A DNA stretch of 64,000 nucleotides from an uncultured Verrucomicrobiae bacterium (GTDB taxonomy: Bacteria > Verrucomicrobiota > Verrucomicrobiia > Palsa-1439). Of the stretch, positions 43,703-54,210 are shown in pieces (the stretch's first letter is position 1; each line of letters starts with the position of its first letter). The stretch lies in the NCBI GenBank assembly GCA_963812605.1, contig CAWEWF010000014.1, forward strand, positions 672,001 through 736,000, in the 5' to 3' direction. The position numbers and the translations under genes are program-made. A model generated the notes under the pieces. It had not been told where the DNA came from. It ran no database searches and saw nothing but the letters and a program-made list of their open reading frames with translations.

Positions 43703-44060
43703 GGAATCTCCTTCTGCAGCCGATATTCGACGATCGCCAACGGGTTCGCAGCCTATCGTGTTCGGACAGGACTGACAAGCTGGCAACTCAGGACGGCACG
43801 TGCAACCCATGGGGCACCGTTGGCAAAAGCAGAGTTTTTTGGCTATCGGACGAGGATTTGGGACCTTTCTCTCTGTATCTTCCTCAATACCAACTACCTT
43901 GTAAGCCAATAAAAATAAGGCCTGTGAGGTACACCAGCCCTTGAATTACCTCTTTCCCTGTGCTACATATCAGGGCTCACACGTTCCCCGCTTTCATGGG
44001 GATGGGGAATGCGAGGAGTGACGTATTAGGGTTACGTAATTAGGGAAAACAGGGAGAAGT

Positions 44061-44867
44061 ATGGGTATTCAAAAAGTTGTACGGGGTGGGGTATTTCGTG
44101 TTTTTGCCGCAGCGCTCTTTTTGCCGGTAGCGGCTCTTGCCGACACCATCAGCGGAACTGCCGGGGCCGCCTTTCAGAACTGGACAGCCGCCGATCTCAA
44201 TCAAAACGGCAAGCCGTATTGGGACAACACGTCCCTCGACGGAAACGATATGAACGTCGGCTACTTCCTGACCGACGCGCCAACGGCCCCGCTCGCGGGC
44301 GCGCCTGGTGCGCTGCCGTTTTGGGGCAAGTCTTTCAATCCGGTCACCGACAAGGGCGGCACTCCAGATCTGAACTTCTTCTTCCAAAAGAACTCGTCTT
44401 TTAGCATCGCCAGCTTGCAGTTGGAAGTGGCCGCGAACTCGAACATCAACGAATTCGGCTGGTATGATATCACGGCCCCGTCGGTGCTACATACGATCTT
44501 CACCGGCCCCGACGCGGCGCCCACGACCAATTCGTTCACACCCAGCGCCGAATATGGCTTCTGGTTGAAGAGCGCTGACGGCACCTACTATACGCAGTCG
44601 TCGCTGAATCCCAGCGGCGATACGAGTCATCAACACTTCGCGGTCTTCGAGCAATCCTCGACAAACGGAGCCCAGATCTATTGGCTGGGGATTGAAGACT
44701 TCAACCTGTCCGAATTCCATGGCGCCGAAGGCGGCGTAGGCGACTACAATGACATGCTCGTCCGCATCTCTGCCGCGCAGGTCCTGACTGTGCCCGAGCC
44801 GTCAACTGTGGCGTTCGTGCTGAGCGGCGCCTTGCTCATGGTTTGCAGGCAGAAACGCCGCCGGTAG
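44061..44867 (+). CDS. PEP-CTERM surface protein (DUF4114-like), copy A
   Basis: Signal peptide; [15 protein letters not shown]; VPEPST-TM-RQKRRR. Confidence 0.9.
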   Translation: MGIQKVVRGGVFRVFAAALFLPVAALADTISGTAGAAFQNWTAADLNQNGKPYWDNTSLDGNDMNVGYFLTDAPTAPLAGAPGALPFWGKSFNPVTDKGGTPDLNFFFQKNSSFSIASLQLEVAANSNINEFGWYDITAPSVLHTIFTGPDAAPTTNSFTPSAEYGFWLKSADGTYYTQSSLNPSGDTSHQHFAVFEQSSTNGAQIYWLGIEDFNLSEFHGAEGGVGDYNDMLVRISAAQVLTVPEPSTVAFVLSGALLMVCRQKRRR

Positions 44868-44969: not shown

Positions 44970-45740
44970 CTACTTCCCGGCGGCACGCTTTCGATTCGGC
45001 TTGGCGGGGGTTTTCACGGGCTGATGCGGGATTGACAGGGCGTCGACTCCGGAGGCGCGGTAGCGCAGCCAATGAATGGCAAAGCGCGCCAGCTCTTCGC
45101 TCGTTCTCAGGTTCAGCTTCTCCTTGATGTGTTCCCGATGCGACGCGACGGTTTTGGTGCTGAGGTGCAGCCGGCGGGCGATTTCCTGGGTGGCGTAGCC
45201 GTCGCCAATCAACTGGAAAATCTCCAGCTCGCGGTTGCTCAGCCGCTGGGCAAGCGAAGTAATCTTGTCCTGGGACACATTGCCCCCGAGGCGGTTGACA
45301 ATCACATTCGTGACCTTCCCGCTCAAATAAACCTGACCGCGCAGCACCTGGCGGATCGCCTGCAGCAGCACGTCCGTTTCCTCCTGTTTCATTACATAGC
45401 CCTTGGCGCCAGCGTGCAGGCTGCGTTCGGCATAGAGGGTCTCGTCGTGCATGGACAACACGATGGTTGGCAACTGCGGATGGCGCAGCTTGATGTCCTT
45501 GATCAGCTCGATGCCGCTGCCTTCGCCCAGGGCGAGGTCCACCACGGCAATGTGGGGCCGCAACTTCTCAATCGCTGCCAAGGCGGCATTAGCATCCCGT
45601 GCCTGGCCGCAGACCTCCAGATCCGGTTCTCCATTGATGCGCTGCGCCAACCCCTCGCAAACCAGCGGGTGATCATCCACCAACAGAACTCGCTGCCGGA
45701 TGCCGGCGGTTTCTGGCTGCTTGGTCTGGGCGGCTTTCAT
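44970..45740 (-). CDS. NarL/LuxR-family response regulator
   Basis: LLVDDHP, VLSMHDE, LSNRELEIF..STKTVASHR..IKEKL; ATGA overlap with the kinase. Confidence 0.93.
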   Translation of the reverse strand: MKAAQTKQPETAGIRQRVLLVDDHPLVCEGLAQRINGEPDLEVCGQARDANAALAAIEKLRPHIAVVDLALGEGSGIELIKDIKLRHPQLPTIVLSMHDETLYAERSLHAGAKGYVMKQEETDVLLQAIRQVLRGQVYLSGKVTNVIVNRLGGNVSQDKITSLAQRLSNRELEIFQLIGDGYATQEIARRLHLSTKTVASHREHIKEKLNLRTSEELARFAIHWLRYRASGVDALSIPHQPVKTPAKPNRKRAAGK

Positions 45741-47437
45741 TTTGATTTTCGGGCGTGGCCCGGCAAGATGCAACTGATAATCGTTCCGCCGCCGCGGCAA
45801 GACGCGATCTGGAGCTTGGCGCCGATCGCGCGCGCGCGGCAATTCATGTTCTCGAAACCCATTCCCCGGCCCTCCGCCGAATCCCCGGACAACCCGCGGC
45901 CGTTATCGACAATGCTCAACACGGTCCCTCCCCGCCGACGGTGAAGCGAGACGCAGATTTCCGTGGCCTTTCCGTGAATGATGCCATTGTGGATCGCCTC
46001 CTGCGTGATGCGGTAAAGATGAACGGCCACGCCGTGGTCGCGGATGTGGACCCGGTGATTGGATTCAAATCGGCAGGAAATCGAGAACATCGTCCCGATG
46101 GAGGACGCCAACTCATCCAGGGCCGCCACCAGACCCATGGTTCCCAGGTTCACGGGATTAAGCCCGCGGGCGATCTGGCGTGCCTGGCTGGCGGTCGCCC
46201 GGGACAGCGCGGCGATTCGCCCTGCCACGCCCGCTTCGGAGGGGGATTGGGCCGCGAGTTGCCTTTGCAGATTACTGGCGATGTAAGCAATGCCGGCCAA
46301 TTGTTGGCACAAGCCATCATGCAAATCGCGCCCGATGCGCTGTTGTTCGCGTTCGCTGATTTCCAACAATTGCCCCTCGGCGCGGCGCCGCCCCATCACC
46401 TGACCAATTTGGCTGCAGATATCCTTGAGCAGTTGCAGCAAATGTTTGTCGGGAGGCAAGACGCGGCGGCTGAAAACCGTGATGACTCCCAGCACTTCCT
46501 GGTTCAGCCGGATCGGAAAGGCAAAGACCGTCCGCAGTCCATACTTGTCAGCGGCCCGCGTTCGTTGCGGCGCCGGCTGCTGGGAAACGTCCTCAATCCA
46601 GAGCGGCTGGTTGCGCGCCCAAACGGAGCCGGGGATTCCTTCGCCGCGCGCAAAGCCCAGATCCTTCGTGGCGCGCTCCACGCGGGGCAGCCGCTGCGAG
46701 GCGGGATGCCAGGTTTGGGCGCAGCGCAAGACATTTGCTGCCGGATCCACCCTCCAAAGCTCGCCCCAGTCGCAACCCAGGTTCTCACAAATGGCCCGAA
46801 AAATTTTCGGGCCGGCCTCGGACAAAGTATAGGATTCGGCGAGCGCATCCGTGGTGGCCTGTTGCGCGCGCAACCGCTGCTGGGCGCGCCGCATCTCGGT
46901 GACATCCTGGGCCAACAATAGAACGATCCGCCTTCCTCGCAAGGGGATCAGAGCCGCGTCGATTTCGACGTTGATAAAGCCGCCATCCTTACGGCGATGG
47001 CGAAACACGTTGTCGTGCCCGTTGTTGGCAACACCGCGCGGCGAAGATAATCCCTGGCAGTACTTCCTGAAGCCCGCCAGAGATTCCGGTGCGCTCAGGT
47101 CCGTCACTTTCATTTGGTGGAACTCGGACCGCGAATACTTGTAGCGGCGGATGGTTGCCTCATTCACCGCCAGGATGCGCAGGGTCCGGGCATCGCAGAC
47201 AAAGCGCGGTTGTGGCAGCTTCACAAACAGGAGCCGATGCAGTTCCTCCGCTTCCGACAAAGTTTGGAGCGCCTCTTGCGTCCGGGTCAGGGCTTCCGCA
47301 ACCCACTCGAATCCCTGCTTTTCATCCAAACGCTCGACACGTCCCCGATTACGGCCAAAAGGAAGGAGAGACGGAAGCTTTGTTTTCAAAGCCAACGCCG
47401 ACCGCTTCGTATCTACTCGCATCGAGGCGCCCGCCAT
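45737..47437 (-). CDS. Cytoplasmic PAS-GAF HisKA_3 sensor kinase
   Basis: PAS (VNEATIRRY..HRRKDG), GAF (GEGIPGSVW), EQQRIGRDLHDGLCQQL, QEAIHN, DNGRG; no TM segment. Confidence 0.92.
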   Translation of the reverse strand: MAGASMRVDTKRSALALKTKLPSLLPFGRNRGRVERLDEKQGFEWVAEALTRTQEALQTLSEAEELHRLLFVKLPQPRFVCDARTLRILAVNEATIRRYKYSRSEFHQMKVTDLSAPESLAGFRKYCQGLSSPRGVANNGHDNVFRHRRKDGGFINVEIDAALIPLRGRRIVLLLAQDVTEMRRAQQRLRAQQATTDALAESYTLSEAGPKIFRAICENLGCDWGELWRVDPAANVLRCAQTWHPASQRLPRVERATKDLGFARGEGIPGSVWARNQPLWIEDVSQQPAPQRTRAADKYGLRTVFAFPIRLNQEVLGVITVFSRRVLPPDKHLLQLLKDICSQIGQVMGRRRAEGQLLEISEREQQRIGRDLHDGLCQQLAGIAYIASNLQRQLAAQSPSEAGVAGRIAALSRATASQARQIARGLNPVNLGTMGLVAALDELASSIGTMFSISCRFESNHRVHIRDHGVAVHLYRITQEAIHNGIIHGKATEICVSLHRRRGGTVLSIVDNGRGLSGDSAEGRGMGFENMNCRARAIGAKLQIASCRGGGTIISCILPGHARKSK

Positions 47438-48011: not shown

Positions 48012-48368
48012 GGCGCTGGTCAGTCGGCTCCGTGAGGAAGAGGACGCAAGGCGCGAGCACGATGATCGCTGGCGATGCGAACAACAACGCGGTCTATATT
48101 GCCACCTGTCATCTTTATCCTACTTGGCGTGCGGCTACTTTACCCGGCTGTTCGGGTTGGCACAATAGAACCCGGACTGTTTTATGGTTCGGAGGATATC
48201 CCATCCCCCCTCAGCCGATCTCCCATGGGAAAACCGTCTTCGCACCGATTGTGGAGACGCGCTCCTTGGCGTAGAAAGAGGAGCGTAAGAACAATCATGA
48301 ACCCAGAGCTACAACGAACCGAAAACCAGAAGGCCGATGAAGGATTGACCGGCCTGGTTGGAAGATTT

Positions 48369-48718
48369 TCAGATGTGGCCGAAACCGGGGCATCAGCGGC
48401 GTTAGTATCGGATCCTCCCCGTGCAATAAACTCGCTTCGTGTTTTGTCGCTTCTCCAAGTGCAAGACACCCTCACCACATTGCACAAACTCGCACCGAGC
48501 TACCGCCAGCTGATGCCCCTCCGGCCCTTTGTTTTTGTTCATGAAGATGAAATTTCGTCAGATGTGGCCGAAACCGGGGCATCAGCGGCGTTAGTATCGG
48601 ATCCTCCCCGTGCAATAAACTCGCTTCGTGTTTTGTCGCTTCTCCAAGTGCAGGACACCCTCACCACATTGCACAAACTCGCACCGAGCTACCGCCAGCT
48701 GATGCCCCTCCGGCCCTT
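48369..48718 (+). repeat. Two 161-bp direct repeats (48369-48529, 48558-48718); candidate rod-shaped ncRNAs
   Basis: 189-bp period with one substitution (A48464/G48653); each copy folds end-to-end (GGGGCATCAGC/GCTGATGCCCC, GTGCAAT/ATTGCAC, GTGTTTTG/CA(A/G)GACAC). Confidence 0.9.
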
Positions 48719-48919
48719 ATGGAATTGAGATCGATGAAACCTTTTCAACAATTCTCGAATGATTCAGCCAAGGTCGGGCAGATTTTGTTTTGGCTGTTCC
48801 CTTACGAGCAGAGCACATTTAATCCCCGCCGGACGCGGACAGATCGTGGCACACGCGGCGCCGCTGACGTTCGCGCATCCCAGGGGGCGCGTTCAAGAAG
48901 CATTTCGAGTCGTCAATCT

Positions 48920-49305
48920 GCAAGCTGAAGCCGGCACCAGGGAGTCAGGGGATCGGCCGGTGGAAGCTGAAGGAACACAGGTTGGGGCTGCCACTAGGGA
49001 AAAAGGGAGTGGCGGCTGCAGCCGAAGAAAGAAGTCGGCAGGCGGAAGCTGGCGGCAGGGAAACAAGGGATCTGCCAGCGGGAGCCGATGGAACGTAGGC
49101 CAAGGCGGCCACCAGGGAAAAAGGGAGTGGCCGCTACGGTCGAAAAAGAAGTCAGTCAAGTCGTCCGGCGAAAGCTGGCGCCAGGGATCGGCGCCGGCTG
49201 AAGCCGAAAAAACTCGGTGGAAACTGCCACTAGGGAAAAAGGGAGTGGCAGTTTCGGCCGACAAAAAGGAAGCCTGTCGAGTCGTCCATCGGCAGGCGGA
49301 GCCTG
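48920..49305 (+). ncRNA. Candidate multi-hairpin RNA with AGGGA loops (CsrB/RsmZ-like architecture)
   Basis: Six hairpins in three ~118-nt units; loop AGGGAAAAAGGGA at 48996, 49114 and 49232; compensatory stem changes between units. Confidence 0.65.
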
Positions 49306-49365
49306 AAGTAACAACGGCTGGACAGATGTCGATTACGTTACAACTGGCATTAAGGGCAATAGGGA

Positions 49366-50298
49366 ATGAAAACAGTTGTGCGGGGCCTCGTCGCCCTGTT
49401 GGTTTTATTTGTTGTCGGTAACGTCGCTCATGGCCTCACCTTCACCGCTACGGGTCAGGGCGACAATACCAATAAGATATTGAGCGCGTCGGTCACGTTT
49501 GCCGTCTCCGACCTGAAGCTCGTTATCACGCTCGCGAATACCGCCACCTTCGACCCGGATGATAGCGCTGACATCCTCACGGGCGTTTTTTTCACGCTGG
49601 TTGGAGACCCGCTGCTCACCCGGACATCGGCGCTGCTCGGTTCCGATACGGCGATCGAAGCCCGTTCGGGAGTGAGCGGTCCCGGTATGAATGTTGGCGG
49701 CCAGTGGGCCTATCGCAATGACTTGACCGACCTGACCAATGAACCGAACGAAGGCCTCGCCATCGCGGGCCTGAAAAACTTTAGCAAGAAACCGTATCGC
49801 TTCTCCGGCCGAAAGCTGGCCTCCCCCAGCGGTGTGCAATACGGGGTCACGACGGACTTCGATAACCTGGGCAACGATAAGGCCAGCCTCAAGCACCAAC
49901 AGCTCATTGAGAACACCGTCGTCTTTACGATGGGCGGACTACCCACGAACTTTACATTCGCGGACATCTCCAACGTCAGTTTCCAGTATGGCACGGGCCC
50001 CTCAGCCGCGGACCTCGCCGGTACGGTCAGCGGTAGTGGCGTCCCCGTGATTCCGGAGCCAAACACCATCGCGCTGGTGGCGGCGGGTTTGCTCGGGGGC
50101 GTTCATCTCAGGGCGGCGACCAAGGGTCGTCGCCCACGTTCGCGCATGCCCCGGGGCGCGCCAAACCAGCCACACTGGCGTCCGGCGGCGCAACCAAGCG
50201 CAAGAGGTTCACCCGGGGAACAATCTTTTGGATGGTCCATCGGTCAACAGAATGTAAAGGAGAATTCGCTTTCATGCGAAAAGGTCGATTCGGCATGA
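49366..50298 (+). CDS. PEP-CTERM (exosortase-dependent) surface protein; 3' end uncertain
   Basis: Signal peptide; LVITLANT..DILTGVFF..NVSFQYGT; IPEPNTIALVAAGLLG. A G-run at ~50095 may be a frameshift (LLGAFISGRRPR fits the motif better). Confidence 0.85.
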   Translation: MKTVVRGLVALLVLFVVGNVAHGLTFTATGQGDNTNKILSASVTFAVSDLKLVITLANTATFDPDDSADILTGVFFTLVGDPLLTRTSALLGSDTAIEARSGVSGPGMNVGGQWAYRNDLTDLTNEPNEGLAIAGLKNFSKKPYRFSGRKLASPSGVQYGVTTDFDNLGNDKASLKHQQLIENTVVFTMGGLPTNFTFADISNVSFQYGTGPSAADLAGTVSGSGVPVIPEPNTIALVAAGLLGGVHLRAATKGRRPRSRMPRGAPNQPHWRPAAQPSARGSPGEQSFGWSIGQQNVKENSLSCEKVDSA

Positions 50299-50404: not shown

Positions 50405-51202
50405 ATGGGTATTAAACGGGTCATATGGGGAAGCGCCCTTGCCGTATCGCTCATTGTGCCGGTAGCAGCTTTTGCGGATACAATCAGCGGAACGGCCGGT
50501 GCCGGGTTTCAGAGTTGGACAGCCGCCAATCTCAATGAAAACGGCAAGCCGTATTGGGACAATCCGTCCCTCGACGGCAGCAATATGAATGTTGGGTTTT
50601 TTCTGACCGATGCGCCCACGGCCCCGCTGCCGGGCGCGCCTGGTGCGCTGCCGTTTTGGGGCAATACTTTCAGTTCGGGCGCCGACAGCGGCGGGACGCC
50701 AGATCTGAATTTTACTTTTCAAACGAACTCGGCCTTCGATGTCGCCAGCATGATCCTGGAAGTTGCCGCCAACTCCAATATCAACGAGTTCGGCTGGTAT
50801 AACATCACGGATCCGTCGGCGCTGCATCCGATCTTCGCCGGCGCCGACTCGCCGCCCGCTACTGACACGTTCGCACCGAACGGCCAGTATGGTTTCTACT
50901 TGAAAGGCAGCAACGGCACCTTCTACACGCAGTCCTCGCTGAACCCCGCCGGCGACACCTCGCACCAGCACTTCACCGTTTTCGAGCAATCCCCGACAAA
51001 GGGAGCCGAAGTTTATTGGCTGGGGATCGAAGACCTCACGGTGCACGATCAATTTGGCGGGGAAGGTGGCGCGGGTGACTACAATGACATGCTGGTCAAG
51101 ATATCGGGCGAGGCTGCGCCGGCTGTGCCGGAGCCCTCGACCGTGATGCTGGTGCTGAGCGGCGCCTTGCTCATGCTCTGCTCGCAGAAACGCCGCCGAT
51201 AG
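50405..51202 (+). CDS. PEP-CTERM surface protein (DUF4114-like), copy B
   Basis: Close paralog of 44061-44867; VPEPST-TM-QKRRR. Confidence 0.9.
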
Positions 51203-51246: not shown

Positions 51247-51278
51247 AAAGCCCCGAACAGCGAACTCGGAGCTTTTTG
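51247..51278 (+). terminator. Probable intrinsic terminator
   Basis: AAAGCCCCGA...TCGGAGCTTTTT imperfect stem with T-tract. Confidence 0.5.
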
Positions 51279-51329
51279 TCTCCTCCAGCGGCTTGCCTAA
51301 GCGGGAACGGGCCGTATAATGCAGTGGCG

Positions 51330-54210
<2,881 letters not shown>

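Follow-up and report, generated by a model that had tools for sequence, protein, structure and literature searches.

Between a small open reading frame (ORF) and a gene for a PEP-CTERM surface protein, the genome of an uncultured Verrucomicrobiae bacterium (Palsa-1439; assembly GCA_963812605.1) carries a dense series of hairpins with GGGA-rich loops. What is this element, and on what does it act? We analyzed the 64,000 nucleotides (nt) of contig CAWEWF010000014.1 from position 672,001 to 736,000 (hereafter the window, whose coordinates are used throughout). A preliminary description of the window had pointed to an array of AGGGA-loop hairpins at 48920 to 49305 and proposed either a small RNA that titrates a CsrA-like protein or a long regulatory 5′ leader of the gene at 49366. 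The array proves to be a genuine structured RNA that is conserved and transcribed and belongs to a new family. With a probability that we put at roughly one half, it works as a cis-acting, lineage-restricted 5′ leader of PEP-CTERM surface-protein genes that binds a factor other than CsrA; at this locus, it may instead be an intercistronic leader that follows the small ORF, here called ORF-B.

Architecture of the hairpin array

The array stretch (48906 to 49365, + strand) is purine rich and poor in T (65% purine, 12% T) and sits between ORF-B (48734 to 48928) and the start of the PEP-CTERM gene at 49366. It consists of three units of about 118 nt, each with one hairpin of type 1 (B) and one of type 2 (C), and the plan of a module is a short word, the A-box, followed by a long-stem hairpin of either type. 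The 118-nt period reported earlier was borne out by two 113-nt copies that are 75% alike and by three 43-nt copies spaced 118 and 118 nt apart; Tandem Repeats Finder gave no report of the hairpin array.

The first A-box (48908 to 48919, GAGTCGTCAATC, repeat family D4), the conserved word ahead of each module, precedes hairpin B1 (48923 to 48969), which has an inner stem at 48930-48935/48956-48961 and a loop containing AGGGAGTCAGGGGA, and hairpin C1 (48980 to 49023), with its stem at 48980-48994/49009-49023 and the loop TAGGGAAAAAGGGA at 48995 to 49008. Hairpin B2 (49041 to 49087; inner stem, 49048-49055/49072-49079; loop, CAGGGAAACAAGGGAT) is a weak match, at 27.8 bits, to R1, our covariance model of hairpin C, and is followed by hairpin C2 (49098 to 49141; stem, 49098-49112/49127-49141), whose loop at 49113 to 49126 reads CAGGGAAAAAGGGA. 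A degenerate A-box (49158 to 49169, AAGTCGTCCGGC, repeat family D3) leads into hairpin B3 (49167 to 49206; stem, 49174-49182/49190-49198; repeat I2), with the short loop AGGGATC and a single GGGA, and then comes hairpin C3 (49216 to 49259; stem, 49216-49230/49245-49259; repeat I1), with the loop TAGGGAAAAAGGGA at 49231 to 49244. The A-box and its variants recur at 48908, 49158, and 49280, the third copy being the loop of a small hairpin (49273 to 49296, + strand, CCTGTCGA[GTCGTCCA]TCGGCAGG) that RNAalifold pairs (columns 62 to 87) and that also appears in the single-sequence fold. The word CCGAAAAAAGG comes after the C hairpins.

The hairpin loops follow the pattern AGGGA-N3-5-AGGGA, that is, two GGGA words 3 to 5 nt apart in an open loop of 13 to 16 nt. 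The C loops read YAGGGAAAAAGGGA, and within them AGGGAAAAAGGGA begins at 48996, 49114, and 49232, as the preliminary description had stated for an invariant type 2 loop; the stems that it gave (GCTGCCAC/GTGGCGGC, GCGGCCAC/GTGGCCGC, and ACTGCCAC/GTGGCAGT) are also correct and extend to 15 positions. The type 1 hairpins were found where they had been placed (about 48923, 49041, and 49167). Their loops carry two GGG(G)A words in B1 and B2 and one in B3, and B1, B2, and most homologues share a 4-by-4 purine internal loop (consensus GGAA/GGAA). The other sequence details of the preliminary description hold as well: in line with the more than a dozen GGA-containing motifs first counted, the 386 nt from 48920 to 49305 hold 19 GGA and 12 GGGA, against genome means of 6.5 and 1.45 for windows of equal size. 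Twelve GGGA words are reached in only 2 of 43,176 half-overlapping genome windows, and the array is the GGGA-densest stretch of the genome. A 20-nt hairpin core has three matches in the 4.17-Mb genome, all inside the array (none in the reversed control).

Folding, covariation, and strand of the hairpins

The + strand folds with −202.8 kcal/mol (z score of −7.3), a value that none of 100 shuffled sequences equals, and the − strand folds more weakly (−157 kcal/mol; z score of −5.3). The loops are predicted to be open in the single-sequence fold. The compensatory stem changes claimed in the preliminary description are thin in the three copies of the window, and even with the first 11 C copies the covariation did not rise above shuffles (57 of 500 matched it); it becomes convincing only with 38 distinct copies, where the claim holds. 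In these, 91.8% of 570 cells are paired, and both sides change at 6 of the 15 pairs (15 cells), as in the inner-stem C-G that becomes U-A in four copies. The covariation score is 0.184 versus 0.131 in shuffles, and slid controls stay at or below 0.068. Hairpin B, with 17 distinct copies, is paired in 100% of 153 cells, with both-side changes at four of nine pairs and a score of 0.276 versus 0.205. For either hairpin, none of 500 shuffles reaches the score; because of the kinship of the copies, and because certain genome loci recur among the metagenome contigs, these counts are not probabilities. The A-box hairpin shows both-side changes at two pairs in RNAalifold.

Hairpin C contains 35 cells of the G·U type and 14 of the A·C type, from which we can conclude that selection for the structure acts on the + strand, which is also that of the downstream genes. 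All 38 C copies keep GGAA in the first motif and GGG in the second despite variation in the stems and in loop length (the latter by 1 to 3 nt), and two distinct stem families, B and C, display the same loop. A G-quadruplex between loops was rated unlikely by inspection, with two GGG tracts per loop and conserved stems.

Loop motif and ribosome-binding site

The motif of the loops is also found at the ribosome-binding site of the gene that follows the array (49350 to 49368, + strand, TTAAGGGCAATAGGGAATG). There, the twin GGG at 49354 to 49364 (TTAAGGG-N5-GGGAATG) has a GGG-to-GGG spacing of 8 nt, as in the loops, and both GGG are kept in all 12 aligned leaders of this gene family, XDD4. The end of the C loop with the first bases of the 3′ stem reads AGGGAGUG, compared with AGGGAAUG at the ribosome-binding site. 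As the site has the same twin GGG at the same spacing, the loops appear to be copies or decoys of it. At one locus (L061; L numbers denote individual loci or contigs), the 5′ arm of a C hairpin and its twin-GGGA loop stand, as a half hairpin, immediately before a start codon, and here the loop takes the role of the ribosome-binding site. In the window itself, an unpaired copy of the loop motif (AGGGAAAACAGGGAG, 44042 to 44056, + strand) forms the ribosome-binding site of another PEP-CTERM gene (44061 to 44867).

GGGA is not the usual Shine-Dalgarno (SD) word of this organism. Upstream of 1,981 long ORFs, AGGAG is enriched 5.8-fold and AAGGA 4.0-fold (115 of 1,981), while AGGGA reaches 2.1-fold and GGGAG only 1.0-fold (27 versus 26); the general signal is AAGGAG-like, and the 3′ end of the 16S rRNA is canonical. 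RNAalifold also pairs the GGG of the ribosome-binding site with codons 5 to 12, a pairing that showed no covariation and was set aside.

Paralogues of XDD4 in the genus genomes that lack the array also carry a twin GGG(G)A at their start, in genomes with or without CsrA. In 10 genus genomes, these paralogues (L091, L093, L095, L096, L098 to L100, L102, L109, and L110) carry, at the ribosome-binding site, another conserved leader hairpin, GGGGAU-GUCGUC-GUACGGGGA-GACAUC, which has the words GUCGUC and GGGGA in common with the array. These two words may be a genus-wide feature of XDD4 leaders.

Distribution and association with PEP-CTERM genes

The covariance-model search that had been proposed as a check recovered homologues with covarying stems in the genus and in metagenomes. 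With blastn, the array region was detected in 3 of the 17 other genomes of the genus, and R1 matches the same three (G004, G006, and G012), plus, more weakly, G022 of the sister genus. Counting the genome of the window (G000), where R1 matches this locus only, the hairpins occur in five genomes, out of 45 in the family and 47 in the order. Modules are present in G012 at three sites on two contigs, and the number of C hairpins (1, 2, or 3) differs between species. Scanning for the exact pattern in 185,579 species, each represented by a single genome, yielded 17 loci; 3 of them, in two Verrucomicrobia metagenome-assembled genomes, score at least 61 bits with R1, and the other 14 score at most 28.6 bits or not at all. 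The same pattern in the metagenomes of the Joint Genome Institute (JGI) gave 28 contigs, of which 8 are chance matches and 20, all from soil or peat, reach at least 46 bits. Sequencing runs containing the array region are likewise labeled soil metagenomes. A looser twin-AGGGA motif occurs 0 to 3 times per genome in 401 genomes of the class, about the control level, and no clustering like that of G000 was seen.

The hairpins are always co-oriented with the downstream gene. In the window, this gene (49366 to 50298, + strand) codes for an exosortase-dependent surface protein of the XDD4 family (NF045504, E value of 1.1e−47; PF07589 at 20.1 bits, under the 20.7 cutoff). The last C hairpin lies 136 to 139 nt before the ATG in 15 XDD4-type loci, 139 nt in the window. 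Single modules precede DUF4394-PEP-CTERM genes by 209 to 220 nt (four loci) and DUF4114-PEP-CTERM genes by about 76 to 120 nt (four loci). This near-fixed spacing ahead of PEP-CTERM genes applies to the loci with a visible downstream gene, bar the exceptions G022 and L060 (unrelated sequence after the array); the contig of L079 stops short of the downstream gene. The next gene of the window (50405 to 51202, + strand), a PEP-CTERM gene of the DUF4114 type by its profile matches, has an orthologue in G012 with its own single hairpin C module, of which only a degenerate remnant is left upstream of the window's copy.

No terminator-like site was found between the array and the ATG in a scan of 48900 to 49365. 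The scan for sigma-70 promoters and terminators at the locus gave one promoter-like site (48725) and two terminator-like sites, all at chance level, and, by eye, there is no convincing sigma-54 or extracytoplasmic function (ECF) promoter.

Presence in soil metatranscriptomes

Contigs covering the array were present in all four soil metatranscriptome runs examined, which come from four studies, so the RNA that the preliminary description had predicted is visible in RNA libraries. The contigs span 48938 to 49308 in X3 (depth, 19.2), 48937 to 49155 in X7 (38.7), 48956 to 49272 in X11 (5.4), and 48935 to 49085 and 49081 to 49230 in X12 (2). Contigs on the upstream ORF-A, the 3′ part of the leader, and the gene have depths of 2.6 to 4.6, below the array depth in X3, X7, and X11. 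Coverage gaps in the flanks of the array are no evidence of silence. A further X7 contig (49207 to 49360) joins hairpin C3 to the ribosome-binding site. Strain differences between the contigs that fall in stems keep the pairing by coordinates (49079 C>U in B2, 49135 U>C in C2, and 49195 C>U in B3).

Known RNA families and candidate partner proteins

The preliminary description did not recognize the design as a known family, and the searches agree. At gathering thresholds, Rfam 15 (4,227 models) finds only a tRNA in the window, and with E values up to 10 on 48300 to 49700 it returns seven junk matches, the best with 18.4 bits against a cutoff of 40; no known riboswitch or other Rfam cis-regulatory family matches. 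The C hairpins lack the U tract of an intrinsic terminator or attenuator, and no such site is present in 48900 to 49365. With three core matches, all in the array, and no plasmid or phage match, the array does not look like a repetitive extragenic palindrome (REP), a bacterial interspersed mosaic element, or a miniature inverted-repeat transposable element (MITE), and the fear that it might be a dispersed REP family was not realized. The features of a cis-acting leader are present: the array is upstream, co-oriented, and conservatively spaced, no terminator intervenes, and the motif overlaps the ribosome-binding site. A search of literature listings turned up no RNA element upstream of PEP-CTERM genes.

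A comparison with Csr/Rsm sponges gave GGA-rich loops, but neither a cognate CsrA nor a match to the covariance models of those families. Elsewhere in the family, the CsrA domain (PF02599) is present in 9 of 45 genomes, and control genomes score. In the genus, CsrA occurs in 0 of 4 array genomes versus 5 of 14 others, a difference expected in about 1 of 3 cases by chance and not statistically meaningful. The Csr/Rsm-type sponge is thus supported as an analogy, not as a membership. Proteins with an RRM domain are alternative candidates for the partner. G000 has three matches, all single-domain, at C5:299184-299393, C14:354899-355108, and C6:120437-120640, and the RRM count per genome does not track the array.

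Another candidate is ORF-B (48734 to 48928, + strand), a small conserved protein that reads MKxFQQF..GQILFWLFPYEQ followed by an Arg-rich tail. Its 12 homologues (P0001 to P0012) are all unnamed, have 60 to 68 amino acids (aa), and keep the 12-residue core GQILFWLFPYEQ invariant. Compared with L014, the differences by codon position are 19, 17, and 34, rich in third positions. ORF-B was found in 6 of 45 family genomes, namely, the hairpin-bearing G000, G004, G006, G012, and G022 and, as a weak match, G026, and it immediately precedes the first module in L005 to L007, L014, and 11 metagenome loci. It is the only gene whose distribution follows the hairpins, which is weak evidence, as both belong to the same locus. 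The AlphaFold2 model (pLDDT, 57.8) has one helix at residues 9 to 21 and a disordered tail. No Pfam or NCBIfam family and no PDB sequence matched, and the best score in the protein atlas (0.80) gave nothing useful. A second ORF-A/ORF-B pair of the sister genus (G022:C26:6515-6664, L033, − strand) has no hairpin nearby; there, the ORF-B domain is the N terminus of a membrane-type frame that stays open for about 298 aa and contains a hydrophobic segment.

Proposed mechanism and alternative explanations

The reading that we favor is that of a leader. A factor would recognize the twin GGGA at the ribosome-binding site and so control translation initiation, and the upstream hairpins would also capture it, either tethering it beside the site (cooperative repression, as in CsrA-controlled leaders) or competing for it. 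Such a factor would be neither CsrA nor Hfq and most likely a dedicated RNA-binding protein, with the genus-wide RRM proteins and the adjacent Arg-rich ORF-B as candidates. The structured leader piece may outlast the coding part and accumulate, possibly as a stable RNA. The data themselves establish the structure and its conservation, the strand, the association with the genes, the identity of the motif with that of the ribosome-binding site, and the presence in RNA libraries; any binding, like the direction of its effect, we infer.

Several results weigh against this reading. One is the missing partner: PF02599 has no match in six-frame searches of G000 (90% complete), nor in G004, G006, or G012 (73%, 95%, and 95% complete), so the proposed CsrA/RsmA link is not supported in any of the four genus genomes that bear the array. 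A search of G000 did not find Hfq either, RRM proteins occur in 18 of 18 genus genomes and are therefore not array specific, and the ORF-B model is of low confidence and resembles no known family. The motif is also restricted. Twin AGGGA is not enriched genome-wide (22 versus 22 in the reversed control), a twin GGG stands at the ribosome-binding site of only 2 of 38 PEP-CTERM-like ORFs, no wider twin-GGGA regulon is visible in the genome, and DUF4394-type genes behind a module do not have a twin-GGG ribosome-binding site. The single hairpin of G022 precedes a 96-aa membrane-type protein that has no PEP-CTERM domain, and no promoter-like site bounds the array in the sigma-70 scan. As for the RNA, metatranscriptome contigs give no strand, ends, or true level, DNA carry-over is possible in RNA libraries, and the depth may be inflated by summing related strains that share conserved hairpins. 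A small RNA that is independent or terminated would likewise account for an array depth above that of the coding sequence.

That small RNA, a discrete molecule of about 370 nt (about 48936 to 49308) that would be either made as such or processed from the locus and would titrate a GGGA-binding regulator from many mRNAs as CsrB and RsmZ do, is the other half of the original proposal; we consider it unlikely. In X3 and X7, the depth of the array contig is 5 to 10 times that of contigs on the flanks, the contigs of three studies start at 48935 to 48938 and that of X3 ends at 49308 (a weak hint), GGA motifs are many, and hairpin number varies between species, as in sponge RNAs. Yet, in a repeat-rich stretch common to several strains, contigs may end where the assembly breaks. 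Moreover, the array is followed by no terminator and keeps a fixed distance to the downstream ATG, single modules stand before other PEP-CTERM genes, no twin-GGGA target regulon was seen, and CsrA was not found in the array-bearing genus genomes. Together with the contig that joins C3 to the ribosome-binding site, the spacing and the missing terminator make the leader the better fit. Similarly improbable is a direct use of the ribosome, in which the loops (AAAGGGAG) and A-rich linkers (AAAAGGAAG) would pair with the anti-SD of the 16S rRNA as 30S standby sites or as STAB-SD-like 5′ stabilizers of very highly expressed mRNAs, no dedicated protein being involved. This would need no missing partner and would fit a genome in which CsrA and Hfq were not found. 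The 16S rRNA ends in ...CACCUCCUUUCU, and in a hand alignment AAAGGG pairs with UUUCCU with one wobble. AAGGA(A)G occurs in the linker after each C hairpin, AAGGA is among the most enriched upstream 5-mers, and the leader is more abundant than the coding sequence. However, none of 38 loops uses the preferred GGAGG or AGGAG, both halves have an invariant GGG, GGGAG shows no enrichment ahead of genes, and the first loop GGGA and the AUG-abutting GGGA would be too near the start codon for an SD, yet they are conserved.

The remaining explanations appear less probable still. The hairpins could have no regulatory role, being duplicated pieces of a ribosome-binding region that form stable intercistronic structures, with the RNA as a nuclease-resistant decay intermediate. 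The resemblance of AGGGAGUG (loop and 3′ arm) to AGGGAAUG, the half hairpin of L061, which suggests an origin by duplication, and the narrow distribution (5 of 47 order genomes) are in line with this, but loop positions invariant in 38 copies while the stems covary, a spacing that is kept, two stem families presenting the same loop, and conservation across two genera make it improbable. It is even less plausible that the Arg-rich tail of ORF-B binds the hairpins on nascent RNA, as lambda N does boxB, and alters elongation, termination, or stability. The overlapping occurrence of ORF-B (6 of 45 genomes, one weak) and hairpins (5 of 45), its place directly upstream of the first module, and a basic tail next to an invariant core, with no predicted fold beyond one helix, suggested this idea; on the other side, the co-occurrence may reflect one locus present or absent as a block, the DUF4394 modules of L008, L059, and L063 have no adjoining ORF-B, the second copy in G022 is part of a 298-aa membrane-type fusion and has no hairpin, and there is no likeness to a known RNA-binding family. 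Less likely again is a DNA-level element, in which the inverted repeats TGCCAC-N14-GTGGCA would be operators or upstream activator sites for a transcription factor such as the neighboring LuxR-type response regulator or an activator of sigma-54. Palindromic repeats do stand at regular intervals ahead of the genes, and a PAS-GAF histidine kinase and a LuxR-type regulator are coded 1.5 to 4 kb upstream, but the region is found in RNA libraries at high depth, the excess of G·U-type over A·C-type cells (35 versus 14) is not favored by a double-stranded site, the most conserved part is the 13- to 16-nt "spacer" rather than the arms, and arms of 15 bp exceed typical operator half-sites. Least credible of all is a protein-coding origin in the 220-aa ORF at 48759 to 49421 or a dispersed REP or MITE repeat. 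The frame is open in the window and in L005, and the modules of G012 lie at three sites on two contigs. Nevertheless, the low T content of the + strand (12%) keeps this frame open, the frame overlaps ORF-B and the start of XDD4, loop-length differences of 1 to 3 nt shift it, and L006 and L007 have no + strand ORF of at least 80 aa across their arrays, so it is not the conserved coding frame that the preliminary description had feared; G000 has the core motif at no other locus, and there is no plasmid or phage match.

Comparison with known regulatory systems

Among the closest parallels to the leader that we propose is the Csr/Rsm system. As in CsrB/CsrC and RsmX/Y/Z, repeated hairpins show A(N)GGA-type loop motifs, and the AGGGA of the array fits ANGGA; as in the CsrA-controlled leaders of glgC, pgaA, and hag, the motif overlaps the ribosome-binding site of the target gene; and, as in these systems generally, repeat number varies by species and the genes code for surface- or biofilm-type products. 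Unlike them, the array belongs to genomes with no detected CsrA, in the phylum Verrucomicrobiota, and matches no Rfam model. Each of its loops carries two GGGA 3 to 5 nt apart, an arrangement that is not known for the sites of a CsrA dimer; its stems of 14 to 15 bp are conserved in sequence, and it has no terminator of its own and is physically fixed before its target genes.

The array resembles STAB-SD and standby elements, such as the Bacillus cryIIIA leader, in having SD-like purine words within a long 5′ untranslated region that are not used for initiation, in preceding the gene of a presumably abundant secreted protein, and in a leader more abundant than the coding sequence, but its word is GGGA and not the preferred GGAG, and this word is placed, two at a time, in closed hairpin loops. 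The loop YAGGGA-N3-5-AGGGA also recalls, as a lead only, the recognition of tandem UAGGGA/U by the RRMs of hnRNP A1, and the genome encodes RRM proteins; hnRNP A1 is, however, eukaryotic with two RRMs, whereas the bacterial proteins here are single-domain and occur in 18 of 18 genus genomes. A gene for a small Arg-rich peptide directly upstream of conserved RNA hairpins is reminiscent of lambda N/boxB, from which the array differs in that neither hairpin nor peptide is similar, the basic region of ORF-B is C-terminal, and the scan of the array found no terminators for such a peptide to overcome.

Neighboring genes

Upstream of ORF-B lies ORF-A (48298 to 48728, + strand), a conserved gene with a weak match to the N-terminal domain of MurF (E value of 5e−7, far below the cutoff). 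It contains a 189-bp tandem duplication (48369 to 48718; 1.9 copies, 99% identical), and the module is also present in two copies, more diverged, in L005 and L006. Homologues of ORF-A are found upstream of the array in L005, L006, L007, and L014, and both ORFs precede the array in the genus and in G022. The codon-position differences of ORF-A do not clearly show that it is coding. Its 5′ region (CCGATTGTG...GTAATAAAG plus the start codon) recurs before a DUF4394-PEP-CTERM gene in G012 (L008 1640-1760, G012:C53), where it leads into a 13-codon upstream ORF whose stop overlaps the ATG of the gene. The CCGATTGTG...GTAATAAAG motif is also found about 70 nt upstream of the hairpin module of L008 and may mark a promoter or the 5′ end of these transcripts.

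The XDD4 ORF (49366 to 50298) extends about 60 codons beyond the PEP-CTERM motif (residues 229 to 249 of 310), and this tail overlaps a degenerate copy of a sequence found ahead of hairpin modules elsewhere. Farther downstream, an aconitase gene is apparently split into two ORFs in different frames (51276 to 52853 and 52977 to 54047), which may be a frameshift, an assembly error, or a pseudogene; aconitase as a binder of the iron-responsive element (IRE) type was dropped, as there is no IRE-like loop. On the − strand, between two PEP-CTERM genes, a PAS-GAF HisKA_3 histidine kinase and a LuxR-type response regulator (44970 to 47437) are possible transcriptional regulators of the locus.

Significance for regulation in Verrucomicrobia

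Little appears to have been described of either the regulatory RNAs of Verrucomicrobia or the way in which PEP-CTERM/exosortase substrates are controlled. The narrow distribution of the element, in a few uncultured species, limits its general importance. Being visible in soil metatranscriptomes of several studies, it is open to study with existing data and provides a defined bait for pull-downs. It reproduces the Csr/Rsm logic, in which hairpins mimic the ribosome-binding site, where neither CsrA nor Hfq was found, and this points to another RNA-binding partner or to direct use of the ribosome. More tentatively, and at odds clearly lower than those of the leader itself, the twin-GGGA hairpins could be the RNA half of a previously unknown, CsrA-free post-transcriptional system, in which a new regulator (the co-inherited ORF-B or an RRM protein) would recognize closely spaced pairs of GGGA in the decoy hairpins as well as at ribosome-binding sites. 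The leader would then act in cis and also, as an abundant stable fragment, in trans. If this is true, such a system would govern how much exosortase-sorted surface protein soil Verrucomicrobia make.

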